64,000 nucleotides of DNA from a virus. Taxonomy: Duplodnaviria; Heunggongvirae; Uroviricota; Caudoviricetes. The position numbers were made by a program, and so were the translations under genes. Positions 4,203 through 63,948 of this stretch are shown in pieces. The notes under the pieces are model-generated. The model did no database searches, was not told the DNA's origin, and saw nothing but the letters and a program-made list of their open reading frames with translations. The stretch lies in IMG/VR virus record IMGVR_UViG_3300034093_001947, one strand, 5' to 3'. The stretch's first letter is position 1. Each line of letters starts with the position of its first letter.

Positions 4203-5024
4203 ATGCCATACGTACAAGGTGCAAGAGTTCACGGAGTAGTACACATTGCTGATGTGTATCGTAGCCCCAATGTTTTTACAAATAATGTTGCAACAGCATT
4301 ATGGTTAGAAGCTGGAACCAGTGCTGGCTTTGTTGGTATTGCTATTAATGCACCGCCATCGTTAGATCCAGCAGAGGCTGCTGCGGCAGTTGACCTTACC
4401 ACTGCCTATACCAGCAATCCTGATAGTTTTTATAATCCAGCGGCTGCGACTGACGGTGTAAAAGCTAACTTTCCCGGTACTCCTGAAGATACTACTACGT
4501 CAACTGGTATTACAGATGTTGCTACTGCTTCAGGTATTGTTCCTTTCTTAGCAGCTACTCTAGAAGAAGCAGGTCGAGGTATGTGGAGAGAAAGTGGCCA
4601 GGCTGGCGGGACCAGTAATAAAAATATCTTAAAGATATGGACAGCACTGGGGTTCTCTGGCAGTCCCTGGAATACCGACCAAACTGCATGGTGTATGGGA
4701 TTTGTTAACTTTGCATTAAAATGCTCAGGTAAACAATATGTGCAAACAGCCAGTGCAAAAGCTATTAAGCAAAATCCAGAGAGATGGGGTGCTACACAAG
4801 TTACACCTGCAACAGCACAGCCGGGTGACATTGTACTTTGGAAGTATAGTCATGTGAACTTTATCTATACCTTGAATGGTGGCAAAGCTACATTTGTTGG
4901 TGGCAATCAAACTCCTACGTCCGGCAAGAATAATAACCCCAGTGACGGAGATGTTACCATCAGTTACGCTGGTGGATCGCCATTAACTAATAACAACATT
5001 GACAGTATCTGGCGAGTAGCCTAA
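4203..5024 (+). CDS. CHAP-domain peptidoglycan hydrolase-like protein
   Basis: C-terminal region has a Cys (…TAWCMGFVNFAL…) and a downstream His (…YSHVNFIY…) spaced like the CHAP Cys-His pair. The N-terminus is Ala/Thr-rich. Confidence 0.5.
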   Translation: MPYVQGARVHGVVHIADVYRSPNVFTNNVATALWLEAGTSAGFVGIAINAPPSLDPAEAAAAVDLTTAYTSNPDSFYNPAAATDGVKANFPGTPEDTTTSTGITDVATASGIVPFLAATLEEAGRGMWRESGQAGGTSNKNILKIWTALGFSGSPWNTDQTAWCMGFVNFALKCSGKQYVQTASAKAIKQNPERWGATQVTPATAQPGDIVLWKYSHVNFIYTLNGGKATFVGGNQTPTSGKNNNPSDGDVTISYAGGSPLTNNNIDSIWRVA

Positions 5025-5560
5025 TGAAACAAAAATTTATCGATATGTATATGGATTGGGCAGAACGCACTGCTCAACTAAGCCACGCTCGTAGACTACA
5101 AGTCGGTGCTGTGATTGTTAAAGACGATAGTGTTATCAGCTACGGCTATAACGGCATGCCTTCTGGGTGGGACAACGATTGTGAAGACAAAGACTATATG
5201 AGTCGCGATGCGGGTGGCTGGTTAGACCCTGAAGAAATTTACGAAAGATGGCCTTTTGAAGAAACAGTAGTAGTCGCAAACGACAATGAAAGTTTTGAAA
5301 CATCTATGCGTTATCGACTTAAAACTAAACCAGAGGTCCTTCATGCTGAATCCAATGCAATTGCTAAGTTGGCCAAGTCTATCAACAGTGGTAACGGTGC
5401 TGGTATTTTCATTACTCATGCTCCGTGTATCGATTGTGCAAAACTCATATATCAAAGCGGTATCAGTAGTGTATACTATCGCAGTAGCTATCGTGATATT
5501 TCGGGGATCGAGTTTTTAGAAAAATCCGGAGTAAAAGTAGAACAGGTTGATAATAAATAA
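5024..5560 (+). CDS. cd: dCMP deaminase
   Basis: Cytidine/dCMP deaminase zinc motifs HAESNAI (HAE) and PCIDCA (PCxxC). Confidence 0.85.
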   Translation: MKQKFIDMYMDWAERTAQLSHARRLQVGAVIVKDDSVISYGYNGMPSGWDNDCEDKDYMSRDAGGWLDPEEIYERWPFEETVVVANDNESFETSMRYRLKTKPEVLHAESNAIAKLAKSINSGNGAGIFITHAPCIDCAKLIYQSGISSVYYRSSYRDISGIEFLEKSGVKVEQVDNK

Positions 5561-5650: not shown

Positions 5651-6025
5651 TAAGACTGTATGAAGTAGACAGAAAAGGATTCAAGACGCGGGGGCAGTGC
5701 CCGCCAGGTCCACCATAAAACACATTAGCCTGACTGAAACGGGCATCGAGTACGTGGAACGTGGAAGAAGGTTCGATTCCTTCATACTCAATTTCAGTAG
5801 TGTGTTTTATAATGGGCCTGACACAGGATCGATTGGGTCACAAGTATTGAAATGGACAGTCCGGCAATGTAGAAGCCGTTAGGATTGGGGTGACCCGGTC
5901 GCAGAAGCAAAACAAAGTAACCGCAAACGACTCACAGTTCGCATTAGCTGCCTAAACTCAGCTTAGGGTAGTTATACCTCGTAACAGAAAATAACAGAAA
6001 GCACCTTCGGGTGCTTTTCTTTTGA
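5651..6025 (+). ncRNA. ssrA: tmRNA (SsrA), probably two-piece/permuted; tag peptide ANDSQFALAA
   Basis: In-frame tag GCA AAC GAC TCA CAG TTC GCA TTA GCT GCC TAA (5923-5955) encodes A-N-D-S-Q-F-A-L-A-A-stop. A tRNA-like 3' end, GACGCGGGGGCAGTGCCCGCCAGGTCCACCA (5686-5714), closely matches the E. coli tmRNA 3' end GACGCGGGUUCAACUCCCGCCAGCUCCACCA but lies upstream of the tag. A candidate 5' acceptor strand GGGCCTG (5814-5820) pairs with CAGGTCC. A terminator closes the gene. Confidence 0.6.
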
Positions 6026-6052: not shown

Positions 6053-6211
6053 ATGAAACAGAGAAAGCTAGTAGCTAAACTGTACAGGGCTTGCGTCGAC
6101 CACGATGCCGAGAAACAATACGAACTTCGTTTAAAAGAGTTCGCCAAAATCTTGAAACACAAGGCCGAAGGCAAACCGTTTACACACAAATGGACTTTGG
6201 TAAGGATTTAA
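6053..6211 (+). CDS. small hypothetical protein (52 aa)
   Basis: ATG preceded by AGGAGG. Encodes MKQRKLVAKLYRACVDHDAEKQYELRLKEF…, below the 60-aa cutoff of the ORF track. Confidence 0.45.
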   Translation: MKQRKLVAKLYRACVDHDAEKQYELRLKEFAKILKHKAEGKPFTHKWTLVRI

Positions 6212-6263
6212 GATTGTAATACAACTGTAATCTTTTAAACATAATACTACGATAAATATTGCT

Positions 6264-7148
6264 ATGCAAAAAACTTATCGTAGTATTTTTGTGAGTGATG
6301 TCCATTTAGGTACAAAAGACTGTAAGGCGGAACAGCTCAATAATTTTCTCAAGCATAATAGTTGTGATACACTATATCTTGTAGGCGATATCATCGACGC
6401 TTGGAAAATACAACAAAACAAATGGCGTTGGAAACAGAGCCACACTAATGTGGTACGCAGAGTACTAGGACACGCCAAGCGTGGCACCCGTGTTGTATTC
6501 ATAGCAGGCAATCACGATGAATTCTTAAGACCAATGATACCCTATGGTTTCAACTTTGGTCTAGTAGAAATACACAATCAAATAGAACATATAGGTGCAG
6601 ACGGCAAACACTATCTAGTCACTCATGGAGATCTGTTTGACGGCATTACCCGTCTTGCACCATGGATAGCATTCCTGGGAGACAAAGCCTATGACGTTGT
6701 TCTTACACTCAACAATAAGTTTAATTGGATTCGTCGCCGTATGGGTTTTGGGTACTTTAGCCTTAGCCAGTATCTTAAGTACAAGGTTAAAAAAGCAGTA
6801 GACTTCGTGTTCAAATTTGAAGAGAACTTGGCCAACTATTGCAAGAAGCGTGGCTTCGACGGAGTTATCTGCGGACACATACATCACGCAGAGATAAAAG
6901 AAATCAACGGTGTCACATACATGAATGACGGTGATTGGGTCGAGTCATGCACAGCACTTGTAGAACATTGGGACGGACGTTGGGAAATAGTTACTTGGAC
7001 CAAGGAGAAAGATGATGTGGATAATGTTATTGTTAGCGATACATTCAAAAAATCCAAACGACATCCCGGGAAGAATAACATTAATGTTTCCGGATCAGAC
7101 ATCGTGCGAATCGATCCTGAAGACAATGTCGTATCAACTAAAGTTTGA
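6264..7148 (+). CDS. LpxH-like calcineurin-type metallophosphoesterase (UDP-2,3-diacylglucosamine pyrophosphatase family)
   Basis: Motifs SDVHLG, GDIIDAW, GNHDEF, THGDLFDG, GHIHHAEI and NDGDWVES match the LpxH family motif order. Confidence 0.65.
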   Translation: MQKTYRSIFVSDVHLGTKDCKAEQLNNFLKHNSCDTLYLVGDIIDAWKIQQNKWRWKQSHTNVVRRVLGHAKRGTRVVFIAGNHDEFLRPMIPYGFNFGLVEIHNQIEHIGADGKHYLVTHGDLFDGITRLAPWIAFLGDKAYDVVLTLNNKFNWIRRRMGFGYFSLSQYLKYKVKKAVDFVFKFEENLANYCKKRGFDGVICGHIHHAEIKEINGVTYMNDGDWVESCTALVEHWDGRWEIVTWTKEKDDVDNVIVSDTFKKSKRHPGKNNINVSGSDIVRIDPEDNVVSTKV

Positions 7149-7169: not shown

Positions 7170-7892
7170 ATGCAAGAAACAATGAAATTCAGTGATAAAA
7201 TTACTATTGTAATTCCTTGTAAGAATGAGGAAAATTACATTCCGTATCTATTAACGCACTTACGTAATCAAATGATAGGTAGTACCAGAATCATTATTGC
7301 AGATTGTTCAACGGACAACACTCGTGAAGTTATTCAAGTATCCAAGGGAAATCTCAATGTTGAAGTTATTGAAGGCGGCCCTGTTTCTACTGCCAAGAAC
7401 AACGGAGCACGGCTAGTTACTACTCCATATATTTTATTCATTGATGCTGATGTACGTTTCTTTAAGGATACGGTTATCCGGGATGCTGTTGCTGAAATAG
7501 AGTCAAAGAACTTAGATCTTATCGGACTAAACCTCAAATGCTATGATCAAGACATTCGAGCAAAGATCGGATTTACACTTTTTAACGTTATAAACAATAT
7601 TCTAAAATATTTCTCACCGTTTGCTATTGGTGCATTTATGCTAACTCGTAGAGATCGTTTTGAAGAACTAGGTGGGTTTCCTGAAAAAACAGTAACATCT
7701 GAGGACTATTTTTTATCTAGGCAGTATAGCCCTAAAAAATTCAAAATATTAAATCATTATTTTGGACAAGATAGTCGAAGGTTTAAGAAGATGGGATATT
7801 TTGGAATGGGATGGTATCTCATTAAAAACTTTATCAATCGTAATAATCAAGAATATTGGGACCGGTTAGATTCGTCAAAGTACTGGAACTAA
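7170..7892 (+). CDS. family 2 glycosyltransferase
   Basis: GT-A fold N-terminus (ITIVIPCKNEENYI…), a DxD-like motif (FIDADV) and a GT2 layout. Confidence 0.7.
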   Translation: MQETMKFSDKITIVIPCKNEENYIPYLLTHLRNQMIGSTRIIIADCSTDNTREVIQVSKGNLNVEVIEGGPVSTAKNNGARLVTTPYILFIDADVRFFKDTVIRDAVAEIESKNLDLIGLNLKCYDQDIRAKIGFTLFNVINNILKYFSPFAIGAFMLTRRDRFEELGGFPEKTVTSEDYFLSRQYSPKKFKILNHYFGQDSRRFKKMGYFGMGWYLIKNFINRNNQEYWDRLDSSKYWN

Positions 7893-12751: not shown

Positions 12752-13106
12752 TATATTTGAAAACGAGAACGACAGTATTCTCTTTATGAATATATCAGAC
12801 CAAGAGCAAGAAGATGCAAGCAAATGGTTCTCGGATCACTTGTTAGAGAAACCTATCAACCTATATTACTATCAAGGCGAGACTGATATAGGTTGGTTGT
12901 TTCATGCAATTTCAAAATCCAAAGCAGTGTACATCAACTGTAACAATGACAGCGATGTTACTAAATGGATAACTAGTTACGTACTCGGCAAGCCGCATGT
13001 TTTTTATTCGGCTGCTGATGAGAATTTCAAAGCGTTGATGAGTTATATTAACCAACAACTCGTTAACAATATTACTAAATTTCTAGAGGTTAATTTTGGC
13101 AAATAA
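12726..13106 (+). CDS. hypothetical protein
   Basis: ORF only. Confidence 0.4.
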   Translation: MITLITPPDIFENENDSILFMNISDQEQEDASKWFSDHLLEKPINLYYYQGETDIGWLFHAISKSKAVYINCNNDSDVTKWITSYVLGKPHVFYSAADENFKALMSYINQQLVNNITKFLEVNFGK

Positions 13107-14334
13107 AGATCACACTCCCAGTTGCAGTTTCTGCGGTAAGAGTAAAGAAGAAGTTGAAAAACTAATTGTTGGCGGTGACAACATTGCAATTTGTAATGAA
13201 TGCGTTGACCTGTGTCTTGACATTCTCAAAGACGACAAGGTTAAAAAATTCCCTACAGATTCTGCTCAGTTGCTTAATCCAGTTCGAGTTAAAGAATATC
13301 TCGATGAATACGTGATCGGACAAGCTGATGCTAAAATGGCACTGGCGGTAGCAGTATGTCAGCACTTCAAACGTATTGCTAAAAATAATCGTAACATTGA
13401 AATTGACAAGACTAATGTGCTGATGATGGGTCCAACTGGCTGCGGCAAAACCATGCTGGTTAAAAAACTAGCCGAGTACTTAGATGTACCATTTGCAATC
13501 TGTGATGCTACTGGACTTACTGAAGCAGGATACGTTGGAGACGATGTCGAAAGTGTTCTTGTACGTCTAGTTGGCAATGCTGATGGTGATATCAAGAAAG
13601 CAGAGCACGGCATTATATATATTGATGAAATTGACAAGATTAGCCGCAAAGGTGAAAGTGCCAGTATCACTCGTGACGTATCAGGCGAAGGCGTCCAACA
13701 AGGGCTGTTGAAAATGATTGAAGGCAGTGTGGTTAGACTGCCAGCAGGTGAAAAACGCAAACATCCACGCGGTGAGATGAACGAAATTGATACTCAAAAT
13801 ATTCTGTTCATTTGCGGCGGTGCATTTGTGGGACTGGATAAAATTGTAGCACGTAGAACCACTACTAGCTCAGTAGGTTTTGGCAGCAAACTAAAAGGCA
13901 AAGATGAAAAGAAAGATCTTTTCAAAGAAGTTACTACTAAAGACCTAATCAGCTTTGGATTAATCCCAGAATTTGTAGGTCGTTTTGGTACAGCTACATC
14001 AGTTGATGAGCTAACAACTGAACAATTAGTGCAAATCCTTAAAGAGCCAAAAAACAGTCTATTACAACAATATCAGTATATCTTTGAACTAGACGGAGTT
14101 GAACTTCAAATTGAAGATAGTGCATTAGGTGCAATCGCCGAACAGGCAAAGTTAATGGAGACTAACGCACGTGGTCTCAAGAATATTTTGGAAAAAATAC
14201 TTTTACGTTATCAATTCGAAGCCATGGATCTTGTAGCCCGTGGTTTAACCAAAATTGTGATAAGTAAAGAAACAGTCGAAGGAAAGCCGGCTGTGCTAAT
14301 TTTTGACAAAAAAGAAAATGAAAAGAAACAATAA
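13096..14334 (+). CDS. clpX: ATP-dependent Clp protease ATP-binding subunit ClpX
   Basis: N-terminal C4 zinc finger (CSFCGK…CNEC), Walker A GPTGCGKT and the ClpX-type IGF-like region; 412 aa. Confidence 0.9.
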
Positions 14335-14548
14335 TAAAGGTCTTAGTGTTGAAGTTAAGGATGACAATGTTAACGTTGCCCTTAGAAAATTCAAAAAGAA
14401 AGTAGAAGACTCTGGAAAACTAATTGATGTAGTTAAACGTCAACACTTTGAAAAACCCACCACTGAGAAGAAACGTAAAAAAGGAGCCGCTCGAGCTCGC
14501 TGGCTTAAAAAGCTCAGAGATGAAAGTCTTCCTAAAAAAATGTATTGA
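14303..14548 (+). CDS. rpsU: 30S ribosomal protein S21
   Basis: …VEVKDDNVNVALRKFKKKVEDSGKLIDVVKRQHFEKPTTEKKRKK… aligns with bacterial S21 (…VALRRFKR…EKPT.ER…). The start is either 14303 or the ATG at 14318. Confidence 0.8.
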   Translation: MTKKKMKRNNNKGLSVEVKDDNVNVALRKFKKKVEDSGKLIDVVKRQHFEKPTTEKKRKKGAARARWLKKLRDESLPKKMY

Positions 14549-14573
14549 CACCTTCGTTATTATCTGCTACAAT
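14545..14573 (+). promoter_or_regulatory. sigma70-type promoter placed for a leaderless or very short-leader transcript
   Basis: TTGACA (14545-14550), a 17-nt spacer, then TACAAT (14568-14573). The ATG at 14580 lies only 6 nt after the -10 hexamer. Confidence 0.5.
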
Positions 14574-15347: not shown

Positions 15348-16117
15348 ACTGCAATATTGATCGCCTGCGGGCACGTATCTTCCATGGCTTAAAAAGTCTG
15401 CTCAGTGACGGTGACACATTGCCTCCTCGATTCCTTGAAGTAGCAATTTGTGAGAGCTTTGGATTAGAACACGTAGGCGACGGTAACTTTTATGCTGACG
15501 GCGTTAAAGACAAGATGCAGGCTAGTATCAAAACTCGCATGATGAATCCTCACTTGTTAAAGCGTAAACAAGGACGAGACTTTCAAACAGACCCTGCTAT
15601 GTTTCTTGGTCCTAAACAAAACAAAAAACATAAAAAGTTTTGGGCAGGATTGGAAATTGTACAGCGTCGACAAGCATTGCCGTTTAAAGATGCTACAGCG
15701 GCAGCAGTTAAAATTGGAACTGCAACTCTCGAAGCTTTTCAAACTAACATTAAAGAAAGTTTTGAAAAGTTTGATACTGATAAGAGTTATGAGATTGTAG
15801 GTGTACACGGGTATTCAATTGAAGGCGATTACATTGTCAGCCTTTACTGGCACGAATATGCTCCTATTGATCCAGCTACTATCAAGTGGACTAAAGAAGG
15901 TTACGGAGTAACTGGCTATGCAAAAGTAGGTGATCAAAGCATGGTGGTCTGTGAGCGTATTAACGGCAATGCCAAACGCGAAGCTACTTGTTATAAAGAA
16001 TACAAAAATTTAACCAAGCTGCCTAACAGTATTCACATCAAAGTTCCATTGCCAACTCCGTGGTCTTTTAACGAGGCAGAAATTCTTAAAGAATTAAACA
16101 GTGTCAGTAATTGTTAA
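15344..16117 (+). CDS. hypothetical protein
   Basis: ORF only; ATGA overlap with the upstream gene. Confidence 0.45.
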   Translation: MNCNIDRLRARIFHGLKSLLSDGDTLPPRFLEVAICESFGLEHVGDGNFYADGVKDKMQASIKTRMMNPHLLKRKQGRDFQTDPAMFLGPKQNKKHKKFWAGLEIVQRRQALPFKDATAAAVKIGTATLEAFQTNIKESFEKFDTDKSYEIVGVHGYSIEGDYIVSLYWHEYAPIDPATIKWTKEGYGVTGYAKVGDQSMVVCERINGNAKREATCYKEYKNLTKLPNSIHIKVPLPTPWSFNEAEILKELNSVSNC

Positions 16118-16331
16118 AATTCATTGGTCTCGTGAATTTGAAAACGAGAAGATGTGGAACGAAGTATGTATATGGGCAATTGAGTACTTTGGTTTGCCCG
16201 GAGATCGATTTGAAACCCGGGCAAACGTCAATTACATGGAATTCATTTTTAAGAGCCGTAAAGATGCACTCCTTATGTCTCTTAGGTGGAACGCAGAGTT
16301 ACTTGAACCAGCCGACTTTGAGACCGTTTGA
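16101..16331 (+). CDS. small protein of the MF[LI]LRW paralog family; the outlying sixth member
   Basis: …VCIWAIEYFGLPGDRFE…MEFIFKSRKDALLMSLRWNAE… shares the W…FG…W…F.FK..KD..M..LRW module with the 21.1-22.3 kb array. GTG start, or an internal ATG at 16152. Confidence 0.45.
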   Translation: MSVIVKIHWSREFENEKMWNEVCIWAIEYFGLPGDRFETRANVNYMEFIFKSRKDALLMSLRWNAELLEPADFETV

Positions 16332-17949: not shown

Positions 17950-18978
17950 ATGGCTAAAACAACTGAAATTGAATTTGACGGTAAAGACATAGTGCTGTTA
18001 GACGACGATTTAAACTACACTACGCATACAGTAGAATCTGTATTAAGTAAAGATCTGTCATTTTGGAAGGGCTGGCATTGTGCAATTGGCCTTCGATCGC
18101 TCTATATTGATTATGAAGGAAATGTAGTACGAGGAACCTGCAGGGAAGGTGGGGTAGTTGCTAACGTATACAAGAAATCCATTCCGTTAGACATTGCAAT
18201 AGGTAATAAATGGACAGTTTGCGGAAAGCAGATATGTTCTTGCGGTGCAGATATGGCTGTGCCTAAGGTAAAGCATCAAGAAAGCATACTGAGATTTTTT
18301 GATTCTAATAAAATTAGAGAATTCGATCTTAACTACAAATTGCCCAAAGTAGACGCAGAAGTTGTATATTCAACCAACTACAATTATAAAACCATAACAT
18401 GGGCCATAGGCCGTAGATGTAACTTTGACTGCTGGTATTGTCCAGAAAGCGATCACAATAACTTTGAAGCACACAAAGATTACGACACTTTGATGTCTGC
18501 TTACAATATATTATCAACTCAATGGATCAAAGGTGAACCTACTAAGTTCAGTATGCTAGGCGGAGAACTGACTGTATATAAAGACTATCTGCCATTTGTT
18601 AAAACCTTAAGAAAAGACGGTCATGGATCTATCACTACAACAAACGGTAGTAGAGATGCTGCCTATTATGCAGAGCTGGCACAGGTTAGCGATCTATGCT
18701 TTAGTTTACATTTGAATTACTTAAAAACTTTAGGGATTGAAAAGTTTGTAAAAAGTATAGATGCTGCTATTCGAAATAAGGCTGAGAATTTTATTCGAAT
18801 CCGCTTAATGGTAGACCCGGGTAATTTGGAATATGCTAAAGAAGTACACGAAATACTATTAGAAAAGTTTAATGGTCGTTGCCTAATCGCTATCAAACCT
18901 GTCCATGACACACAAGGTAAATTATTTCCATACGAGCCAAAAGAGATCATTTGGATACAAAACCCTATTGACAAATAG
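17950..18978 (+). CDS. radical SAM domain protein
   Basis: CNFDCWYC (CxxxCxxC) cluster after about 150 residues. Confidence 0.55.
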   Translation: MAKTTEIEFDGKDIVLLDDDLNYTTHTVESVLSKDLSFWKGWHCAIGLRSLYIDYEGNVVRGTCREGGVVANVYKKSIPLDIAIGNKWTVCGKQICSCGADMAVPKVKHQESILRFFDSNKIREFDLNYKLPKVDAEVVYSTNYNYKTITWAIGRRCNFDCWYCPESDHNNFEAHKDYDTLMSAYNILSTQWIKGEPTKFSMLGGELTVYKDYLPFVKTLRKDGHGSITTTNGSRDAAYYAELAQVSDLCFSLHLNYLKTLGIEKFVKSIDAAIRNKAENFIRIRLMVDPGNLEYAKEVHEILLEKFNGRCLIAIKPVHDTQGKLFPYEPKEIIWIQNPIDK

Positions 18979-19020
18979 CATTCTTAATGCTATACTTGTT
19001 TATCAACATAGGAGAATTCC

Positions 19021-19888: not shown

Positions 19889-20330
19889 GAAAGTTGGCCG
19901 CCGGTATATTCCAGTAGCCGAATATGATAACATGTTGCTAGACAGTTTCCCGAAAGGTGACCACCTAGTTATGTGTTACCCTGGTGGATCTAGCCGCAGA
20001 TTCAACATCGATCCACACTATGCACCTATGATTGCGGCTGGCCGTGTTGCTGAAGATGCTATCAGTAAAGCAGTGGTCAAAGCCAGCGAGATGCGTCCCC
20101 ACCGTACACCCATTACTGAGAAGCAACGTAAGGCTTGGGAATCTCTGGCCAAAGCATTTGACAATGATCGCTACTACATTGAAATCCCTAGTGCAAGAGA
20201 AATTGCCGAAGCGGGAGTTAAAGCAATGATTGATGAAGCCGACAAACTAATGGAGCACGAAAGTGTACGCAAAGCCTACGATCATTTCCAACTAATGTGT
20301 AAATTGGTTAAAGAAAACGAACGTGAATGA
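19868..20330 (+). CDS. hypothetical protein
   Basis: Internal ATG chosen to reduce the overlap; no motif. Confidence 0.35.
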
Positions 20331-21103
20331 CTCGCTTTTTATTATTGATGCTAGTTTGCGGATCTGTTTGGGCTAAACCGTTACCTCAAAGTGTGTTGCT
20401 GTACAACGATACTACCGGACACCACCTAATTCAATCTAATGCAGACACTGTTCGTCCTATTGCCAGTATTACTAAACTAATGACTGCTATGGTTACGTTA
20501 GATTATGACAAAGACCTTACCCGCACATTAAAATCTGCAGGCAAAGTCGGAGGAATACTGCCTCGAGGTACGTGGACACGAGGAGAGGTGATGCACGCCA
20601 TGTTGATTCGCAGTGACAACGATGCTGCCGAAACATTAGCAGCAGATTACCCCGGAGGTCGCAGTGCCTTTTTGGCAGCTATGAACGCTAAGGCTATATT
20701 ACTCAATATGCCTAACGCTAATTTTGGAGATCCGAGTGGACTCGATTCTAAGAATGTTACAACATTGCTCGGAGTTAAACGCTTACTGTTGGCAAGTTCA
20801 GAGTATCCTATTATCCGAGAAATTAGTGTAAAGAAACAGGCATTGTTTGATCATCGATTTAAAAAGAAAATACGTAAGATCGAATTACCAAATACCAACA
20901 AAGAATTATTATTTGAGTTTGACAATATTGTTGTGACTAAAACAGGACTAACTAATCCTGCAGGTTGGTGTTTAGGTATGGTTGTAGAACAGGGTGGACA
21001 AAAATATGTCATAGTAATTTTAGGTGCTAGAAATAAATTAGAGCGACTTAAAATTGCCAAAGAAATCATGTACAATAACATAACAGATACGGATTTGCGA
21101 TGA
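20327..21103 (+). CDS. D-alanyl-D-alanine carboxypeptidase (serine peptidase S11 / low-MW PBP-like)
   Basis: Signal peptide, SITK (SxxK), SDN (SxN) and KTG motifs in the canonical order and spacing. Confidence 0.7.
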   Translation: MTRFLLLMLVCGSVWAKPLPQSVLLYNDTTGHHLIQSNADTVRPIASITKLMTAMVTLDYDKDLTRTLKSAGKVGGILPRGTWTRGEVMHAMLIRSDNDAAETLAADYPGGRSAFLAAMNAKAILLNMPNANFGDPSGLDSKNVTTLLGVKRLLLASSEYPIIREISVKKQALFDHRFKKKIRKIELPNTNKELLFEFDNIVVTKTGLTNPAGWCLGMVVEQGGQKYVIVILGARNKLERLKIAKEIMYNNITDTDLR

Positions 21104-21288
21104 TATTAGTTGATCACGAGTATCATGTTGTTGAGTTACACACATTTAAGATACCACCTGCAGAAATGTTTGAGTGGCTACAACTTAAATTCGGTCCGGG
21201 TGACGGTTACCGTTGGATGTACAAGCATCCTAAAATTTATTTTGCAGATCCAAAAGATCACATGATGTTTTTGTTGAGGTGGTCATGA
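21100..21288 (+). CDS. MF[LI]LRW-family small protein, tandem copy 1
   Basis: Ends …DPKDHMMFLLRWS; ATGA overlap with the neighbours. Confidence 0.55.
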   Translation: MILVDHEYHVVELHTFKIPPAEMFEWLQLKFGPGDGYRWMYKHPKIYFADPKDHMMFLLRWS

Positions 21289-21506
21289 ATCGTACTCACT
21301 TGGATTATGAAGTATTTCTAGACTCCGGACTACACAATAAGGCAGGACGATGGTGTGCCCAACAGTTCGGACAGCGTTGGGAAGTAATAGGTTTTCAATC
21401 CGGGCGTTGGTCAATGTTTTGGGGCGGAAGAGATAGCCCGGGCAAGTATAGATTTTGTTTTGCCCATGAGCAAGACAAGCTGATGTTTATGTTGAGGTGG
21501 TCATGA
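21279..21506 (+). CDS. MF[LI]LRW-family small protein, tandem copy 2
   Basis: …AGRWCAQQFGQRWE…HEQDKLMFMLRWS; start embedded in GAGGTGGTCATGAAT. Confidence 0.55.
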   Translation: MVMNRTHLDYEVFLDSGLHNKAGRWCAQQFGQRWEVIGFQSGRWSMFWGGRDSPGKYRFCFAHEQDKLMFMLRWS

Positions 21507-21820
21507 ATATTGAACAAAGTGTAATTAACGAAGCAGCTCGCCAAATGGCTAAAGCTATTGACGATGAGTTACTAATGACCACAATGGGGTGGCACAAACT
21601 AGAACTAAGCGAAGGTACTGTTTACGGTTCTCGATATCTAACTGTACATCCTAACAACGGCTGGCACTGGAATGAAATGATGGATTGGACAGTAAAGACA
21701 TTTGGACCCACAGCACACGACGGAGTCTGGACACCTAACATGCGTTGGTATGCTAACAATGCTAAATTTTGGTTCCGAAATGAAAAGGATCGTACAATGT
21801 TTATTCTGAGGTGGGCATAA
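21497..21820 (+). CDS. MF[LI]LRW-family small protein, tandem copy 3
   Basis: …MMDWTVKTFGPTAHDGVW…FRNEKDRTMFILRWA. Confidence 0.55.
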   Translation: MVMNIEQSVINEAARQMAKAIDDELLMTTMGWHKLELSEGTVYGSRYLTVHPNNGWHWNEMMDWTVKTFGPTAHDGVWTPNMRWYANNAKFWFRNEKDRTMFILRWA

Positions 21821-22092
21821 TGGCCAGTATTAATACTATTATTGGCAGTGCTGAAACAGAGCCCGAAATCCAGCCAATGCAAACTGGCAAGGCCAAAGGT
21901 TGGATTGGTGAGTATCATTGGGTTAGTCTTCCTGTTACTGATCAAAACAAATACGAAAACACAACTGAGTTAGCCACTGAATGGTGTCGAGATCAGTTTG
22001 GTAAGAGTGGTGCTCGTTGGTTTGAAAAAGAACGTAAATTCTATTTCAAAAGTGAGAAGGACATGACTATGTTTATTCTGAGGTGGTCGTGA
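21811..22092 (+). CDS. MF[LI]LRW-family small protein, tandem copy 4
   Basis: …LATEWCRDQFGKSGARWFEKERKFYFKSEKDMTMFILRWS. Confidence 0.55.
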   Translation: MGIMASINTIIGSAETEPEIQPMQTGKAKGWIGEYHWVSLPVTDQNKYENTTELATEWCRDQFGKSGARWFEKERKFYFKSEKDMTMFILRWS

Positions 22093-22322
22093 GTGATACA
22101 GCAAGCTGGATTACATTTGGTAAAGAACGGTATTGGCAACATCCAGACATGGAACAATGGTGCCACGAACATGTAGGAACCGGTGGTTGGTCCTATCAGA
22201 CTCCTGAAACTTGGGAAGGCATGAATGGTAAGATTTGGGTCATGCATAGTATGTTTGGTAATACTACATTTGCCTTCAAGGATGCTAAACATTTAACAAT
22301 GTTTTTATTAAGGTGGTTATAA
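22083..22322 (+). CDS. MF[LI]LRW-family small protein, tandem copy 5
   Basis: …MEQWCHEHVGTGGW…FAFKDAKHLTMFLLRWL; GTG start embedded in GAGGTGGTCGTGAGT. Confidence 0.5.
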   Translation: MVVSDTASWITFGKERYWQHPDMEQWCHEHVGTGGWSYQTPETWEGMNGKIWVMHSMFGNTTFAFKDAKHLTMFLLRWL

Positions 22323-22386
22323 TGGAGTTGACAAAATTAAAAAAATTTGTTAAAGTATTAGATAAACATACAGAAAGAATTTTATC

Positions 22387-22605
22387 ATGACTATGGATCA
22401 AGCAGCGACCTGGTTAGCAGGCAGTATTTTAACAATGTTAGGTTTTATTGTAGTAATTGGTGCAGTATTGGTAATCAACAATCTACTGCATAAGTATTGG
22501 AAACCAGTGCAATTCTTTAAATGGGCAGAACATCCTTCTACTCGTTTTATGACGGAAGAAGAAACTACAAAGATTGCACCAGTAATAGACCAACAGAATA
22601 AATGA
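22387..22605 (+). CDS. small membrane protein
   Basis: Single strongly hydrophobic helix (LAGSILTMLGFIVVIGAVLVI). Confidence 0.4.
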   Translation: MTMDQAATWLAGSILTMLGFIVVIGAVLVINNLLHKYWKPVQFFKWAEHPSTRFMTEEETTKIAPVIDQQNK

Positions 22606-36090: not shown

Positions 36091-36399
36091 ATGGCAAATA
36101 CCAAAACTAAAGATATTGTTGATATTGAAGAAGATTTTGACATTGTAACACCCGGCATGTACAAAGTGATTGTACTAAATGATGATCACACCCCAATGGA
36201 TTTTGTCATTGCATTATTGATGCATGTGTTTAAGCACAACGAATCTAGTGCAAAAGAAATAACAATGCGAGTACATGAACAGGGTGCAGGTGTTGCCGGT
36301 GTTTATACTTACGAAGTTGCAGAACAAAAAGGTGTAGAAAGCACAATGCTTGCTAGACAAAATGGTTGGCCACTAGCTGTTAGAATCGAAGAAGAATGA
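36091..36399 (+). CDS. clpS: ATP-dependent Clp protease adaptor ClpS
   Basis: …MYKVIVLNDDHTPMDFVIALLMHVFKH…EITMRVHEQGAGVAGVYTYEVAE… is the classic ClpS core. Confidence 0.8.
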   Translation: MANTKTKDIVDIEEDFDIVTPGMYKVIVLNDDHTPMDFVIALLMHVFKHNESSAKEITMRVHEQGAGVAGVYTYEVAEQKGVESTMLARQNGWPLAVRIEEE

Positions 36400-37622
36400 A
36401 ACAATACGCCGTTACTGGAATAGGAATCATTAATGGGCTAGGTGCAAGTGTTCAAGAAAACTGGAAAAATCTGTTAGCAGGAGAAACTGCAATTAAACAG
36501 ATCAAATGGCCTGAAGATAATCCGACAAAATTTCCAAGAACACATAAATCTTTAATTGTCTCTTCTGGAGCACCGTGTCCGTTACCTGCGTTTGAAGAAG
36601 CAGAATTTGGAGGGCATCACCAGTATTGGGATCCGTGTGTTAAAATATCAATGCACACTGCTAGAGATGCTATCAGAGACAGCAATCTTACTAGCAAAAA
36701 TGTTTCAGTAGTGTTTAGTACCACTGGTGGAAGTTTACATAGTAGAGCATACATGATGCGACAACTAGAAGATGGCCGCGAAAGAGTTTCACCAAGGCAG
36801 GTAATACAAGCAACTGCGGATTACATTAGCGGATTGATTGCTAGGATATACGAATGCAACGGTGGTTCAACTTCGATGCACTCTGCATGTTCAACTGGAC
36901 TAACTGGTATTGATTATGCTATTAAGCAACTAGAATTTAATGACGATCTCGATGCTGTCATTGTGGGAGGTGCCGACGTACCCATTGAAGGCTTCCAAGT
37001 ATACTACTTTCAAAATCTCGGTGCATTAAGTTTACAACCAGCAGAAATTGCCAGTAGACCTTTTGACAAAGATAGATCAGGATTTGTAGCAGGAGAAGCT
37101 GCTGGCACACTAATTATCGAACCGTTAGATAAAGCCAAAGCACGGGGTGCAAAGATTTACGGAATAATCAAGTCTGTGGGAATTGCCACAGCTGGTAATA
37201 ATGATACTGCCCCAGATAAAAACGGTGACGCTGCAAAGTTAGCAGTAACCAGAGCAATAAAACAAGCAGGCATACAGTTAGCCGATGTCGGATATATTAA
37301 TGCACACGCTACCGGAACTAAAGTCGGAGATGACATTGAATTTTATGCCATGCGTGAGTTGTTGCCAGGCACAACAATGACGGCAAATAAAGGACAAATT
37401 GGACACACGTTGGCTGCAAGCGGAATTGTTGAAACTATCTACACTGTGTTAGCACTACGAGATCAAATATCACCCCCTACTGTAAATTTAACTAACCCAA
37501 TTGATGTAGGAATCAATATTCCTACCAAGGCCACGGTGATTGCAACTAAGTATGCAATAAAGAACAATTTTGCATTCGGCGGCAGGGCTGCTTGTGCAGT
37601 ATTAGAACGTTACGAGGATTAA
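36396..37622 (+). CDS. beta-ketoacyl-[ACP] synthase (KAS I/II-like condensing enzyme)
   Basis: Active-site Cys block …SMHSACSTGL…, His blocks …INAHATGT… and …GQIGHTLAASG…, and a thiolase fold of about 400 aa. Confidence 0.75.
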   Translation: MKQYAVTGIGIINGLGASVQENWKNLLAGETAIKQIKWPEDNPTKFPRTHKSLIVSSGAPCPLPAFEEAEFGGHHQYWDPCVKISMHTARDAIRDSNLTSKNVSVVFSTTGGSLHSRAYMMRQLEDGRERVSPRQVIQATADYISGLIARIYECNGGSTSMHSACSTGLTGIDYAIKQLEFNDDLDAVIVGGADVPIEGFQVYYFQNLGALSLQPAEIASRPFDKDRSGFVAGEAAGTLIIEPLDKAKARGAKIYGIIKSVGIATAGNNDTAPDKNGDAAKLAVTRAIKQAGIQLADVGYINAHATGTKVGDDIEFYAMRELLPGTTMTANKGQIGHTLAASGIVETIYTVLALRDQISPPTVNLTNPIDVGINIPTKATVIATKYAIKNNFAFGGRAACAVLERYED

Positions 37623-38174
37623 ATGAGTCTTAAAGAATTAACAGCAGAAAATCACGATCGTGCAGAACACACACCTTTTATGAAGGCAGTGTTTGCAAAG
37701 ACATTACCCAGAGAAATATGGACAGACTGGACTTTACAAAAGTCCTTATTTTACGGTGCAATCGAAGGTGCAGCCGGTGCTAACAGATTACTAGGCGACT
37801 TGCCCGATCTGCGTAGAGAATTTTATCTAAACATGGACTACAATGAGATGAACGGGCAAAATCCTCGTCACTCATATCGCCCATTGGTTATTGATTATTA
37901 CAACTATATATTAAGCATCAGTCAAGATCCTAATAAGGTTATGGCACATTTATATGTGTGGCATATGGGAGATATGTTCGGCGGACAAATGATTAAGAAG
38001 ATTGTTCCGGGTCCGCATCGCAATTTAGAATTTGAAGATGCTAACACATTAAAAACTAACATTCGTGCTAAGTTAGATGACAGCATGGGCGACGAAGCCA
38101 ATGTAGCTTTTGAATGGGCTATCAAAATTATGGAGTCATATAACAATGAGCTTGGTCTGGAACAGTCTAATTGA
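37623..38174 (+). CDS. heme oxygenase
   Basis: N-terminal LKELTAENHDRAEHTPFMKAVF matches the HO proximal-helix motif L…T…H…E…FMK. Confidence 0.6.
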   Translation: MSLKELTAENHDRAEHTPFMKAVFAKTLPREIWTDWTLQKSLFYGAIEGAAGANRLLGDLPDLRREFYLNMDYNEMNGQNPRHSYRPLVIDYYNYILSISQDPNKVMAHLYVWHMGDMFGGQMIKKIVPGPHRNLEFEDANTLKTNIRAKLDDSMGDEANVAFEWAIKIMESYNNELGLEQSN

Positions 38175-38826
38175 TATACAAACTGAGTTTGAAAGACAAT
38201 TCAATCTCAGTGGTACAGAAGTACAAGAGCCGGGCTTAGAAAGATTCAGTTGGTACAACAAAGTCTGGACCAGTAGCTTATATCGCAGAGCACACATCGA
38301 TGTAGTAGATGCTAGAGAAACCAAGGGCCTATGGATGATGCATTGCTGTGTGTTTCCGCATACTCATAATCCTGCACCTATCTTTGGATTTGATGTAGTA
38401 GCTGGCAAAAACAAAGTAACAGGTGCGTTTCACGACTTTAGTCCTGCTGGTGATCCAGAGCATCCGATGCTAGATTATTTTGCAGACGAAGCACAAAAAT
38501 TAGAGTGGAACAAAGTTAGACGTTTGCCCGACTGGGCAGAGCGTATCTTTACTCCTAGCATGATCAGTGCGGGAAACGTTAACGATCCAACTGAGCTTCA
38601 ACAACTGTATTTTACTGCTATTAATAACTTAAAGCATTTCATTAACACAGTAGGCGAGACAAACGGAACTGCATTAGACACTGGTCCTGCACAGGATTAC
38701 TATTGTGAAAATCAAAGACAGAATCCCCATACTCCTAAAGTAATGACTGCATTGGGTTTGAATCCAGAAGACGTTCGTGTGTTTATACAGGACTGCCTGT
38801 TTCCTAAGATAGGAACACATCAATGA
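38146..38826 (+). CDS. ferredoxin-dependent bilin reductase (PebA/PebS/PcyA family), copy 1
   Basis: …WYNKVWTSSLYRRAHIDVVDARE…LWMMHCCVFPHTHNPAPIFGFDVVAGKNKVTGAFHDFSP… FDBR core; start at MSLVWNS with a GGAG RBS. Confidence 0.65.
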   Translation: MSLVWNSLIDIQTEFERQFNLSGTEVQEPGLERFSWYNKVWTSSLYRRAHIDVVDARETKGLWMMHCCVFPHTHNPAPIFGFDVVAGKNKVTGAFHDFSPAGDPEHPMLDYFADEAQKLEWNKVRRLPDWAERIFTPSMISAGNVNDPTELQQLYFTAINNLKHFINTVGETNGTALDTGPAQDYYCENQRQNPHTPKVMTALGLNPEDVRVFIQDCLFPKIGTHQ

Positions 38827-39491
38827 GCACAGTATGGACACAGATGCAGCAGTGTGCTGAAACTATGCAGGCCATGATGGAACATGCAGGGTACAGAGCA
38901 GAAGATCCTAGTTTAGATCAATACGACTGGGAAAATCATGTATACCATAGTAATCTGTTTCGTAGAGGACACGTGGAAGTAGTAGACAAGACTACAACAC
39001 ACGGAATATACATCCTACATGCAACAGTATTCCCACACCCAGACGATCCTAGTCCTATCTGGGGTTTTGATGCTGTCTGCGGCAAGAACAAGATCACAGG
39101 TGCGTTTCATGATTTTAGTCTAGTAAGCAAAAGCCATTGGTTGCACGACTGGTTTGCAGATACTGTAAAAGACGTAACTTGGAACAAGAAACGAGAATTA
39201 CCCGGGTGGGCTCGTAATATTTTTAGCCCTGCTATGGTAGCAGCGGGTAATATTAGCGAGCAGCACGAGTTAGATAATATTATAGATCTAGGAATTAAAA
39301 CCCTAGATTACTATCTACACAATGTAGGAGATCGCATTAACGGGGTCGATGTTACTGACCAACAAAATTACTACTGTCAAAATCAGAAACAAAATCCCCA
39401 TGTGTATCGCAGCATGATTGCTATGGGAGTGCCGGAAGCAACTATCCGACAGTTTGTTGAGCAAGTGCTGTTCCCTGAAATTGGTAAATAA
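38823..39491 (+). CDS. ferredoxin-dependent bilin reductase, copy 2 (paralog)
   Basis: …WENHVYHSNLFRRGHVEVVDK…LHATVFPHPDDPSPIWGFDAVCGKNKITGAFHDFS… runs parallel to copy 1. Confidence 0.65.
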   Translation: MSTVWTQMQQCAETMQAMMEHAGYRAEDPSLDQYDWENHVYHSNLFRRGHVEVVDKTTTHGIYILHATVFPHPDDPSPIWGFDAVCGKNKITGAFHDFSLVSKSHWLHDWFADTVKDVTWNKKRELPGWARNIFSPAMVAAGNISEQHELDNIIDLGIKTLDYYLHNVGDRINGVDVTDQQNYYCQNQKQNPHVYRSMIAMGVPEATIRQFVEQVLFPEIGK

Positions 39492-41262: not shown

Positions 41263-41745
41263 ATGCGATTTTTAATTCTCGGCCTGGCCTTGTCTGCAAT
41301 GACGGTACAGGCTGCACCAATAAATGACTTTACTTTTAAAAGTCCGGCCTTCAACGGAGCAGGTTACAGTAGTCACGTCTTAACTATCGAAAATCAAGAA
41401 GCGACTCGTAGAAAAGCTCTACAAGATAGACTTCAAGCAGCATTAGACAAAGAGGCTGCTGACAAAAAGAACACTAACTTGGCTAAGTTTTTAAACAACT
41501 TAGAGTCTAGAATCTATGCACAAGTTAGCCAAAACGTAGCAACTGCTATGTTTTCTAATAGCGGATGCACCAGTACTACTCCTACAGCAGATTGTAAAGG
41601 TGAGGTTGATTTCCAAGGCAGCAAAATCAGCTGGCAAAAAGTTATATTAGTAGACGGCAACTTTATTCGTCTAACTGTAGTAGGTCCAGATATCAATACC
41701 ACTATTGATATTCCGTTAAGTCAATTTGTAGTTCCGGGGATATAA
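41263..41745 (+). CDS. csgF: curli assembly protein CsgF-like
   Basis: Signal peptide. The mature N-terminus …FTFKSPAFNGAGY… resembles CsgF …FQFRNPNFGGNPN…, and the later …FLNNLESRIYAQVSQNV… resembles …DNFTQAIQSQILGGL…. Confidence 0.55.
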   Translation: MRFLILGLALSAMTVQAAPINDFTFKSPAFNGAGYSSHVLTIENQEATRRKALQDRLQAALDKEAADKKNTNLAKFLNNLESRIYAQVSQNVATAMFSNSGCTSTTPTADCKGEVDFQGSKISWQKVILVDGNFIRLTVVGPDINTTIDIPLSQFVVPGI

Positions 41746-41746
41746 T

Positions 41747-63871: not shown

Positions 63872-63948
63872 ACCCGCGTAACTCAGTGGACTAGAGTACT
63901 ACGCTACGAACGTAGGAGTCGGAGGTTCGAATCCTTCCGTGGGTGCCA
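63872..63948 (+). tRNA. tRNA-Arg (anticodon ACG)
   Basis: Acceptor ACCCGCG/CGTGGGT, D-arm ACTC-AGTGGACTA-GAGT, anticodon arm CTACG-CTACGAA-CGTAG, T-arm GGAGG-TTCGAAT-CCTTC, CCA encoded. Confidence 0.75.

Follow-up and report, generated by a model that had tools for sequence, protein, structure and literature searches.

A tandem array of small paralogous phage genes in which a conserved C-terminal motif carries the Shine-Dalgarno sequence of the next gene

Overlapping, coupled genes with ATGA or TAATG junctions are found in the E. coli trp operon and in many phage operons. In T4-type phages, Arbiol et al. reportedly described in 2010 hyperplastic regions in which small ORFs are shuffled by means of PeSL (promoter-early plus stem-loop) cassettes. 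Lineage-specific expansion of a small domain is known from Bacillus phage G, which carries ~35 copies of a zinc ribbon (PMC7824862). The genes described here resemble each of these systems in part. They belong to a family that is carried by large, metagenome-abundant phages with a gp23-type capsid protein, and that has no annotation, solved structure or literature.

The DNA analyzed is a stretch of 64,000 nt (the window) from IMG/VR record IMGVR_UViG_3300034093_001947, which belongs to an uncultured phage with a genome of ~380 kb and many auxiliary metabolic genes. Five ORFs, c1 to c5, are all present on the + strand between positions 21100 and 22322, where they lie head-to-tail, the frame of each gene being -1 relative to that of the previous one (Table 1). 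The starts used are the gene-caller starts in identical contigs, which are also those that give stop/start overlaps. In the original prediction the products were 62-107 aa long; the lower figure stands, and the upper one becomes 105 aa, since in-frame GTG codons 6-9 nt upstream had been taken as starts. The neighbors of the array are non-structural and include genes for NAD salvage, rIIA/rIIB, a radical-SAM enzyme and ClpX/ClpS. The same phage also encodes ribosomal protein S21.

Table 1. Features of the array, of the dispersed copy and of the adjoining DNA (positions are those of the window)
Feature	Position	Strand	Start, length or sequence	Remarks
c6	16101..16331	+	GTG, 76 aa	dispersed sixth paralogue
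Candidate sigma-70-like promoter	18968..18996	+	TTGACA-17-TATACT	best such match upstream of the array; 11/12 positions; consensus match only
Peptidase gene	20327..21103	+		Peptidase_S11-type D-Ala-D-Ala carboxypeptidase homologue; stop overlaps c1 start
c1	21100..21288	+	ATG, 62 aa	shortest of the family, essentially the bare module
Shine-Dalgarno for c2	21276..21282	+	GAGGTGG	Leu-Arg-Trp codons of c1, TTG AGG TGG
c2	21285..21506	+	ATG, 73 aa	ATGA overlap with c1 stop
Shine-Dalgarno for c3	21494..21500	+	GAGGTGG	within c2 tail
c3	21503..21820	+	ATG, 105 aa	N-terminal helix (residues 3-27), then module; ATGA overlap with c2
c3 tail	21797..21814	+	ATGTTTATTCTGAGGTGG	holds Shine-Dalgarno for c4 (21808-21814)
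c4	21820..22092	+	ATG, 90 aa	TAATG overlap with c3 stop
Shine-Dalgarno for c5	22080..22086	+	GAGGTGG	within c4 tail
c5	22089..22322	+	GTG, 77 aa	GTGA overlap; start is ATG in L003/L004
AAGGTGG in c5 tail	22310..22316	+	AAGGTGG	then TAATG overlap with 22-codon ORF
22-codon ORF	22322-22390		22 codons	TAATG overlap with c5

As had been predicted, start and stop codons overlap at the four internal junctions of the array; they also overlap at the junction between the peptidase gene and c1 (ATGA). The internal junctions read GAGGTGGTCATGA at c1/c2 and c2/c3, GAGGTGGGCATAATG at c3/c4 and GAGGTGGTCGTGA at c4/c5. The sequence 3' of c5 is AAGGTGGTTATAATG, and the 22-codon ORF found here is probably an intergenic promoter region that is non-coding. 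The tail codons, (T/C)TG AGG TGG NNA TGA, encode Leu-Arg-Trp-X-stop. The same bases also give a GAGGTGG Shine-Dalgarno sequence and an overlapping ATG for the next gene; thus, a ribosome that ends one gene would be expected to re-initiate on the next. The array has the sequence arrangement of a translationally coupled operon, namely a stop/start overlap with a Shine-Dalgarno sequence that lies 5-9 nt upstream, within the ORF before it, and its genes would be translated together, in a coupled manner, from a single mRNA. The candidate start of this operon is the sigma-70-like promoter listed in Table 1; within the array itself no terminator or strong internal promoter was found. RNA structure that enforces coupling or hides the Shine-Dalgarno sequence was not seen at the array junctions (z-scores of -1.6 to +1.3 relative to shuffled sequences).

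That the Shine-Dalgarno sequence is built from the Leu-Arg-Trp codons, a further claim of the original prediction, is borne out by selection on these codons throughout the family. Of 277 terminal Arg codons, 80.5% are AGG, compared with 7.3-7.6% elsewhere, and the codon before it ends in G in 78%. Genes with AGG at this position tend to overlap the start of the next gene in an ATGA-type junction (odds ratio 15.8, p = 2e-10). A single residue follows the Trp in 312 of 405 members, and the junctions are of the ATGA (248), TAATG (39) or GTGA (14) type. Half of the family junctions lead into an ORF outside the family. Each family gene would serve as a plug-in cassette that supplies translation signals to its downstream neighbor. 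Since the ribosome-binding site sits within the protein motif of the family, the coupling signal travels with the gene on duplication. Overlaps of 4 nt are also frequent among other small genes of the same phage, and thus the style of overlap is not special to the family.

Like coupled operons of the trp type, the array occupies one strand, has no promoter or terminator between its genes, and combines the stop/start overlap with a Shine-Dalgarno sequence inside the upstream gene, 5-8 nt before the start. Unlike in those operons, the ribosome-binding site of the array is part of the family-defining Leu-Arg-Trp motif, and it is kept by synonymous-codon selection over hundreds of members.

The dispersed copy, c6, shares 17 nt with the gene upstream of it and 33 nt with a gene that converges on it from the minus strand; its LRW is internal, with an extension of 12 residues after it. 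When the 1,330 six-frame ORFs of the window are searched with an HMM of the five array copies, c6 is recovered with an E value of 8.5e-5 (runner-up, 0.63), and the sixth copy predicted 5 kb from the array is thus a genuine member. The family HMM scores c1, c2, c4 and c5 at 67.6, 44.9, 120 and 41 bits, respectively. Between copies, DNA identity across the last 60 nt is only 62-77%. Because a leave-one-out test on the six copies alone was too weak, a broad-family profile was used instead; it was made without close relatives, and the last 12 residues were cut from both the profile and the targets. With this tail-less profile the six copies are the top six ORFs of the window (E values of 3.3e-18, 7e-16, 2.7e-11, 4.5e-10, 3e-5 and 1.8e-3; the next ORF, 0.25), and the family has exactly six members in the window. 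Since all six are recovered after removal of the tail, their likeness is not merely that of a DNA repeat; the possibility raised at the outset, a nucleotide repeat with no protein likeness outside it, does not hold. The HMM and the tail-less profile agree on paralogues with a common C-terminal module and diverged N-termini, as first proposed. Together with the dN/dS values and the predicted fold given below, they mark c1 to c5 and c6 as real protein-coding genes and true paralogues.

An artifact could have produced a similar picture if the ORFs were spurious readings of a non-coding repeat, or if a single multi-domain gene had been broken by frameshifts or were read by programmed -1 frameshifting. 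Successive ORFs do lie in the -1 frame, and the DNA likeness is strongest in the last ~25 nt. However, dN/dS is far below 1, every junction combines a conserved start codon with a Shine-Dalgarno sequence and lacks a slippery heptamer, the same gene structure is present in dozens of independent assemblies, the homology survives removal of the tail, and single units give confident fold predictions. The artifact is already contradicted by the evidence in hand and can be given next to no weight.

Relative to sister strains, dN/dS lies between 0 and 0.23 for c1-c5 and is 0.05 for the adjacent peptidase gene. It is 0 for c1 (compared with L003/L004), 0.18-0.23 for c2, 0.13-0.23 for c3, 0.04-0.09 for c4, which is the most conserved paralogue of the array, and 0.095 for c5, the allele that diverges most between strains. 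The genes had been described as fast-evolving, a view that is not sustained: every copy is under purifying selection, and each paralogue type has conserved orthologues in diverged phages (orthologue clusters of c3 number >600, and the c6 type is highly conserved among related phages). Turnover is in copy number and in whole alleles, and it occurs via recombination.

The length of the array varies among related phages, a check that had been proposed with the original prediction. The sister strains L003/L004 carry one more array gene, of 66 aa, which is bounded exactly by tails. In the window, the site at which this gene is missing is the c3 tail, where blastn gives an indel with a 31-nt HSP overlap; thus, the c3 tail marks a tail-to-tail recombination site. 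Independently, and at unrelated loci, L063 differs from L060/L071 by a tail-to-tail indel. In addition, dS reaches 1.09 in c5 and 0.4 in part of c3, compared with 0.06-0.13 in the neighboring genes. These alignments indicate that the tail is a recombination point. The common tail of 18-25 nt would supply homology for unequal recombination, by which whole genes would be gained or lost and alleles swapped. The tail is a clear case of dual coding, in which the bases of a conserved protein motif also provide the next gene with its ribosome-binding site and start context and act as a recombination handle, and it gives a concrete mechanism by which phage accessory arrays can grow or shrink and yet keep expression.

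Like the hyperplastic regions of T4-type phages, the array consists of consecutive small accessory genes to which no function is assigned, located in a non-structural part of a phage with a gp23-type capsid protein, and both gain or lose genes between close relatives by recombination at short repeats. However, the repeat of the array is coding (a C-terminal tail with a Shine-Dalgarno sequence) rather than an intergenic promoter plus hairpin, and a strong promoter or stable hairpin, as in PeSL cassettes, is absent at the internal array junctions. Moreover, the array genes are paralogues of one family, whereas PeSL ORFs are unrelated. The zinc ribbons of phage G are likewise a many-copy expansion of a small domain in a very large phage genome. 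The present family differs from them in its fold, which has no metal ligands, in its spread over many phage lineages rather than one genome, and in its coupled tandem arrays.

The family is large, unannotated and essentially restricted to phages. It comprises 951 clusters at 90% identity and 1,532 representatives at 50% identity, all of them 54-138 aa long and with the module at their C-terminal end, and it occupies 79 IMG/VR loci on contigs of up to 400 kb. The 185,579 species genomes of GTDB contain only 2 matches, both on short MAG contigs that bear arrays. A locus holds from 1 to 16 members (median 5), of which 428/430 lie on one strand. A megablast search with the locus as query found no match among 50,697 phage records, and tblastn searches of cultured-phage records with c4, two distant members and the family consensus gave nothing significant. 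The family is also present in the cultured Sinorhizobium phage Phosso (PV764938.1; two weak tblastn matches, confirmed by HMM), whose members are XYS97803.1, XYS97420.1 and XYS97422.1, and Atu_ph07 has marginal members only. A literature search for the family motif or for arrays of paralogous small genes in jumbo phages returned nothing relevant.

The protein is a Trp/Phe-rich alpha/beta domain of ~60 residues with variable N-terminal additions, which ends in a helix, ...(E/K)D..(M/L)F.LRW, usually followed by one residue. A beta-beta-alpha-beta-beta-alpha fold is confidently predicted (AlphaFold2; pLDDT 86.4 and pTM 0.72 for c4, pLDDT 78 for c3). The conserved positions are W, F, G and L together with one R, one D and the tail R; conserved catalytic-type residues are not among them. 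Trp makes up 5.9% of residues. The pI ranges from 4 to 10, so the proteins are not a uniform acidic mimic. The family had not been recognized from its sequence, and it has no counterpart in the libraries searched. The best match of the six copies in Pfam-A, PHROGs v4, NCBIfam 20 and PADLOC 2 has an E value of 0.035, far below the cut-offs; in a set of 150 diverse representatives the module matches none of the library families, only grafted N-terminal segments being matched; and the best E values against the PDB are 0.45 for the family profile and 0.34 for Foldseek. Matches in BFVD are uncharacterized proteins of uncultured phages only.

The same two-layer beta-beta-alpha-beta-beta-alpha topology is found in PCD/DCoH proteins (PF01329; PDB 2ebb, 1uso, 3jst and 4low), with which the family shares 0-7% identity. 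Homology to PCD/DCoH was rejected: there is no Pfam match, the hhalign probability is 0.6%, and the catalytic His-His-Pro (HHP) motif is absent in all six copies. PCD/DCoH is best regarded as an analogue of the predicted fold, homology not being demonstrated.

Segments of the gp23-type major capsid protein (Gp23, PF07068) are grafted onto some relatives, which start with either the most conserved gp23 segment or a second one. The N-termini of L062, L034, L022, L008 and P0213 match Pfam Gp23 positions 2-59 above the gathering score, and that of L084 matches positions 136-195, also above the gathering score. In several relatives the grafted segment aligns to the Gol region of T4 gp23, which is the region that binds EF-Tu (PMC3014915). 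One further family member has a tail-fiber-type N-terminal motif. The window copies are without such a segment (no match to Gp23 even at E <= 10), and the module itself does not match. Derivation of the module from gp23 was rejected, since T4 gp23 has a score of -1.2 bits with the family HMM, and since BLAST yields only one pair, with an E value of 0.2. The suggestion that the N-terminal helix of c3 corresponds to a gp23 helix is likewise unsupported, there being no Pfam match and hhalign aligning only the tail.

The account that best fits these results, with a probability of roughly 0.55, starts from the array of phage-restricted paralogues that the sequence data show, and has its genes coupled and recombining through their tails. 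It is more tentatively proposed, as somewhat less likely than not, that the products are non-enzymatic binding modules that act in host takeover or counter-defense, each paralogue having a different host or phage partner. Binding modules are suggested because no catalytic-type residue is conserved, the pI is variable, no enzyme or defense family is matched, and the neighboring genes are non-structural. A conserved hydrophobic core would carry variable N-termini, loops and surface charge, and the proteins would be co-produced from a non-structural, probably early operon. Conservation of the orthologues under purifying selection is not the usual signature of an arms-race effector.

The recurrence of Gp23-matching segments in the family (in the six members named above), together with the tail-fiber-type motif, would also be consistent with accessory factors of capsid or virion assembly that bind or mimic gp23 (an assembly chaperone, a decoration protein or a minor head protein) and are not directed at the host. 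The profile matches in the PDB, all of them sub-threshold, are to a tail component and a capsid-scaffold protein (E values of 0.45-0.69) and point in the same direction. However, capsid grafts are absent from all six copies in the window, gp23 itself is not matched by the family profile, and the array is located among metabolic and early-type genes, away from the structural genes; a role in assembly is thus considered unlikely. Modulators of the translation machinery, that is, small proteins of eIF1/SUI1-like fold that bind the ribosome or EF-Tu, seem a doubtful alternative. The predicted topology is the same as that of the first six elements in the SUI1 fold, Pfam SUI1 is matched by 1/150 representatives (E value of 0.008), the Gol region, to which the graft of several relatives aligns, binds EF-Tu (PMC3014915), and S21 is encoded by the same phage. 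Yet all of these signals are at chance level, one such SUI1 match being expected per 150 scans; PCD/DCoH, ACT and BMC folds fit equally well or better; and the variable pI speaks against a common RNA-binding surface. Homology to SUI1/eIF1/YciH (PF01253) was rejected, as no window copy matches and hhalign of the family with human eIF1 gives a probability of 0.06% (with an approximate eIF1 sequence).

Gain and loss mediated by the tail, a copy number that ranges from 1 to 16 per locus, and the mosaic replacement of alleles are also what might be seen if the genes were selfish coding cassettes, kept mainly by tail-driven duplication and recombination and of little benefit to the phage. This is very improbable given that every copy is under purifying selection, that orthologues of the c4 and c6 types are stable in diverged phages in which the neighbors are conserved too, and that the genes are not accompanied by a nuclease, an integrase or any other mobility function. 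It is also conceivable, albeit improbable, that the ~60-residue domain is a carrier that displays short N-terminal peptides, some of them copied from structural proteins of the phage, and so occupies, misleads or pre-empts the host factors and abortive-infection sensors by which these structural proteins are recognized. The peptides would then be the EF-Tu-binding Gol region of gp23, the second gp23 segment and the tail-fiber N-terminal motif; the LRW/Shine-Dalgarno tail would let variants enter or leave the co-translated array by tail-to-tail recombination, and the array in the window would be a graft-free or cryptic-graft part of the repertoire. For the binding modules preferred here, the grafts suggest that the members that carry them would act on partners of the capsid protein, and candidate partners are EF-Tu, the chaperonin, the capsid protein itself and capsid-sensing defense proteins.

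Five plus-strand ORFs (c1 to c5) follow one another at 21100-22322, and a sixth paralogue, c6, lies apart from them (table below). The limits of c1-c5 were set by gene calls on identical metagenome contigs together with start codon positions. The array junctions are, in order, ATGA, ATGA, TAATG and GTGA, each preceded by GAGGTGG, which is built from the Leu-Arg-Trp codons of the gene before; a Peptidase_S11-type gene upstream joins c1 by another ATGA overlap. c6, which shares 17 nt with the gene upstream of it and 33 nt with a convergent gene, was found by an HMM of the five array copies (E 8.5e-5 among 1,330 six-frame ORFs; runner-up 0.63), and the window contains exactly six family members.

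Family members and the adjoining peptidase gene in the window (dN/dS against sister strains L003 and L004), and members in other loci and phages
Feature	Position	Strand	Length (aa)	Start	dN/dS	Match
c1	21100-21288	+	62	ATG	0	
c2	21285-21506	+	73	ATG	0.18-0.23	
c3	21503-21820	+	105	ATG	0.13-0.23	
c4	21820-22092	+	90	ATG	0.04-0.09	
c5	22089-22322	+	77	GTG	0.095	
c6, sixth copy	16101-16331					
Peptidase gene adjoining array					0.05	
L062 member	879-1268					Gp23 profile 2-59, 49 bits
L034 member	4692-5105					Gp23 profile 2-59, 47 bits
L022 member	7393-7767					Gp23 profile 2-59, 38 bits
L008 member	5664-5975					Gp23 profile 2-59, 30 bits
P0213, family representative						Gp23 profile 2-59, 27 bits
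L084 member	7461-7808					Gp23 profile 136-195, 41 bits
L057 member	6078-6473					gp23-type N-terminal segment, Gp23 profile 2-59
Phosso member	451669-451953					family, 40 bits
Phosso member	174920-175276					family, 24 bits
Phosso member	175711-176025					family, 20 bits

The original prediction, that the six genes are paralogues, would fail if their similarity were limited to the repeated tail. A profile of the six sequences without their last 12 residues gave only a marginal signal. In a broader test, a profile was made from distant family members only, after removal of close relatives, and the tail columns were cut from both profile and targets; the six copies were the top six window ORFs (E 3.3e-18 to 1.8e-3; next 0.25), which bears out the paralogy. 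DNA identity among the copies is just 62-77% over the last 60 nt. Among 150 representatives at 50% identity, near-invariant positions (W-C-x3-F-G ... R-W ... F-x-F ... D ... F-x-L-R-W) are scattered through the entire shared C-terminal module.

The array ORFs are real genes, and dN/dS against the sister strains, which are ~95% identical to the window overall, lies between 0 and 0.23. An AlphaFold2 model of c4, made with the family alignment, is confident (pLDDT 86.4, pTM 0.72) and predicts a beta-beta-alpha-beta-beta-alpha topology; in the model of c3 (pLDDT 78), a 25-residue helix precedes the same module. Homology of the module to DCoH or eIF1 was rejected, hhalign being negative for both.

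The tail also serves as a translation signal. Of the 405 non-redundant members from the loci retrieved, 312 end a single residue past the Trp, and the stop/start overlaps are ATGA (248), TAATG (39) or GTGA (14). In 277 terminal L-R-W motifs the Arg codon is AGG in 80.5% of cases, compared with 7.3% at the remaining Arg positions of these genes and 7.6% across long ORFs from those loci; 78% of the Leu codons just before it have G in the third position. AGG tends to occur where the start of the next gene overlaps (odds ratio 15.8, p = 2e-10). These figures uphold the proposal that a Shine-Dalgarno sequence is written into the C-terminal codons and, with the overlaps, support an architecture from which we infer translational coupling along the array. 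Since about half of the junctions lead into a non-family ORF, the tail serves any gene that comes next. Overlaps of 4 nt are frequent throughout this phage; what is special to the family is not the overlap itself, but a ribosome-binding site locked into the protein motif that defines it. We hold the genetic architecture as described to be very likely correct, and it resembles a known kind of locus, the coupled accessory-gene array.

Folding of the junction RNA revealed no stable structure, and the array contains no terminator-like or strong promoter-like site. The best promoter-like sites lie upstream of it (18968-18996) and directly after c5 (22328-22356, TTGACA-17-TAAAGT). A 22-codon ORF at 22322-22390 (MELTKLKKFVKVLDKHTERILS) coincides with the latter site and links c5 (TAATG overlap) to a gene at 22387 (ATGA overlap); the codons in which it differs from the sister strains are all non-synonymous, and therefore it is probably not coding.

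Array length varies, as had been anticipated, with the tail as the point of exchange. Of 20 contigs with an identical c1, ~16 carry the five-gene array and ~4 carry six genes. The extra gene encodes 66 aa ending in ...DLTMFMLRWG and is a family member at 36.5 bits. The edges of the indel fall inside the shared ATGTTTAT..TGAGGTGG tail, where the flanking blast alignments overlap by 31 nt, and c3 in the window ends in the sequence that lies downstream of the missing gene (GCATAATG). Independently, locus L063 differs from L060/L071 by a tail-to-tail indel comprising a whole number of genes, with a 15-29 nt overlap at GTTGAGGTGG. Relative to L003/L004, dS is 1.09 for c5 and ~0.4 for c3, compared with 0.06-0.13 for c1, c2, c4 and the peptidase gene. 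This mosaic points to allele replacement: recombination appears to have exchanged whole c5 and c3 alleles in otherwise near-identical strains. Together with the tail-bounded indels, it indicates a locus that changes by recombination and not by fast amino-acid substitution, so the description of these genes as fast-evolving is not borne out by their low dN/dS.

The family is new, very large and phage-specific, and its dual-use C-terminal motif is notable. Profile searching across 5.8 billion proteins gave 951 clusters at 90% identity, all "hypothetical" and none with a Pfam domain; among 1.84 billion representatives at 50% identity, searched exhaustively with HMMER, 1,532 are members at E <= 1e-3, 54-138 aa long throughout, with the module nearly always at the extreme C-terminus. 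The family had not been recognised at the outset, and indeed Pfam, PHROGs, NCBIfam and PADLOC contain no match to the module; BFVD adds nothing beyond uncharacterised proteins from uncultured Caudovirales. IMG/VR yielded 79 loci, whose contigs reach 400 kb. In 77 distinct loci, a locus holds a median of 5 members and at most 16 (in 6.5 kb), and 428 of 430 members share the same strand. Orthologues of every paralogue type in the window are conserved elsewhere; the c6 and c4 types occur most widely, and the c3 type by itself comprises >600 clusters. A scan of 185,579 bacterial and archaeal species, each represented by one genome, gave two matches, a Crocinitomicaceae MAG contig (JBDNIA010000391.1, L090, five family genes inside 900 nt) and a Polynucleobacter MAG contig (CAYVBV010000146.1, L091). 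Because both are short and carry arrays, they are most likely phage contigs mis-binned into freshwater MAGs, which offers a weak hint of habitat or host. Two cultured jumbo phages are carriers: Sinorhizobium phage Phosso (PV764938.1, 469 kb; loci L093/L094) has clear members and is an available experimental system, and Agrobacterium phage Atu_ph07 (L095) has marginal ones (gp258 and gp255, at 19 and 13 bits). The annotation of each of these members is hypothetical protein.

The conserved residues form chiefly an aromatic and glycine core, to which are added a single Arg, a single Asp and the Arg of the tail; residues of the kind found in catalytic sites are not conserved in the family. The proteins lack membrane and signal segments, their pI spans 4 to 10, Trp accounts for 5.9% of residues, and variability is concentrated in the N-terminus and the loop from the first helix to the third strand. 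Because a conserved core without catalytic-type residues is combined with this range of pI and these variable regions, we favour, at a probability of about 35-40%, the reading that these are non-enzymatic binding modules co-expressed from a non-structural operon. That they modulate the translation machinery through a SUI1-like fold is improbable, every signal for it being at chance level, and selfish cassettes appear slightly less probable still. An artefact or frameshifted polyprotein is contradicted by the evidence and can be given hardly any weight.

Structural proteins enter the discussion through relatives outside the window, several of which start with a piece of gp23-type major capsid protein. 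In L062, L034, L022, L008, P0213 and L084 the match lies above the Pfam gathering score, and across L062, L034, L022, L008, L057 and L084 scores run from 24 to 49 bits. The first segment (2-59) aligns to T4 gp23 ...QIGPAVMGMVRRAIPNLIAFDICGVQPMNSPTGQ, a stretch which we take to be the Gol region. This region is a 29-residue EF-Tu-binding stretch, the most conserved part of gp23 (PMC3014915). In P0252, a c3-type representative, the 40 N-terminal residues (IIPSGTTQARPAFPAIGSIRYNT...W) match ~20 PHROGs, several of them virion structural or tail-fibre families and the majority of unknown function; they are a further graft of a structural-protein motif, of tail-fibre type. The six window copies contain no graft of either type, and the module has no detectable derivation from gp23. 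A role as capsid-assembly accessory proteins is unlikely; a display or decoy scaffold for structural-protein peptides, the reading that the capsid and tail-fibre-type grafts motivate, is somewhat less likely again.

The binding-module reading places the array in a non-structural operon, and its neighbours are non-structural, among them ribonucleotide reductase, ThyX, ClpX, ribosomal protein S21, an Rv2179c-like exoribonuclease, a radical-SAM enzyme, an aminotransferase, the NAD-salvage pair NMNAT-Nudix and NAMPT, rIIA/rIIB, HSP20, ClpS, ketoacyl synthase, heme oxygenase, two bilin reductases, CsgG/CsgF, a CHASE2-cyclase, sugar-modification genes and 14 tRNAs. Such a set is in keeping with the gp23-type "group 2" jumbo phages (PMC7824862). 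The phage itself is uncultured and found on contigs up to 381 kb, and its rIIA is only 29% identical to those of the nearest cultured phages.

At 36396-39491, genes for a ketoacyl-ACP synthase, heme oxygenase and two ferredoxin-dependent bilin reductases are consecutive, with HSP20 and ClpS immediately upstream; the set is similar to cyanophage auxiliary genes. Homologues of the curli secretion components CsgF and CsgG (41263-42661) and a 684-aa CHASE2-domain nucleotide cyclase (48279-50333) are both unusual as phage cargo. The cluster of 14 tRNAs (61367-63948) has duplicated tRNA-Glu(ttc) and tRNA-Asp(gtc) and two tRNA-Lys isoacceptors. Ribosomal protein S21 (~14300-14550) comes after a ClpX-like AAA+ protein whose N-terminus is a zinc finger (13096-14334), with coordinates from gene calls in locus L092, and the pair is also present in the diverged relatives L005-L007.
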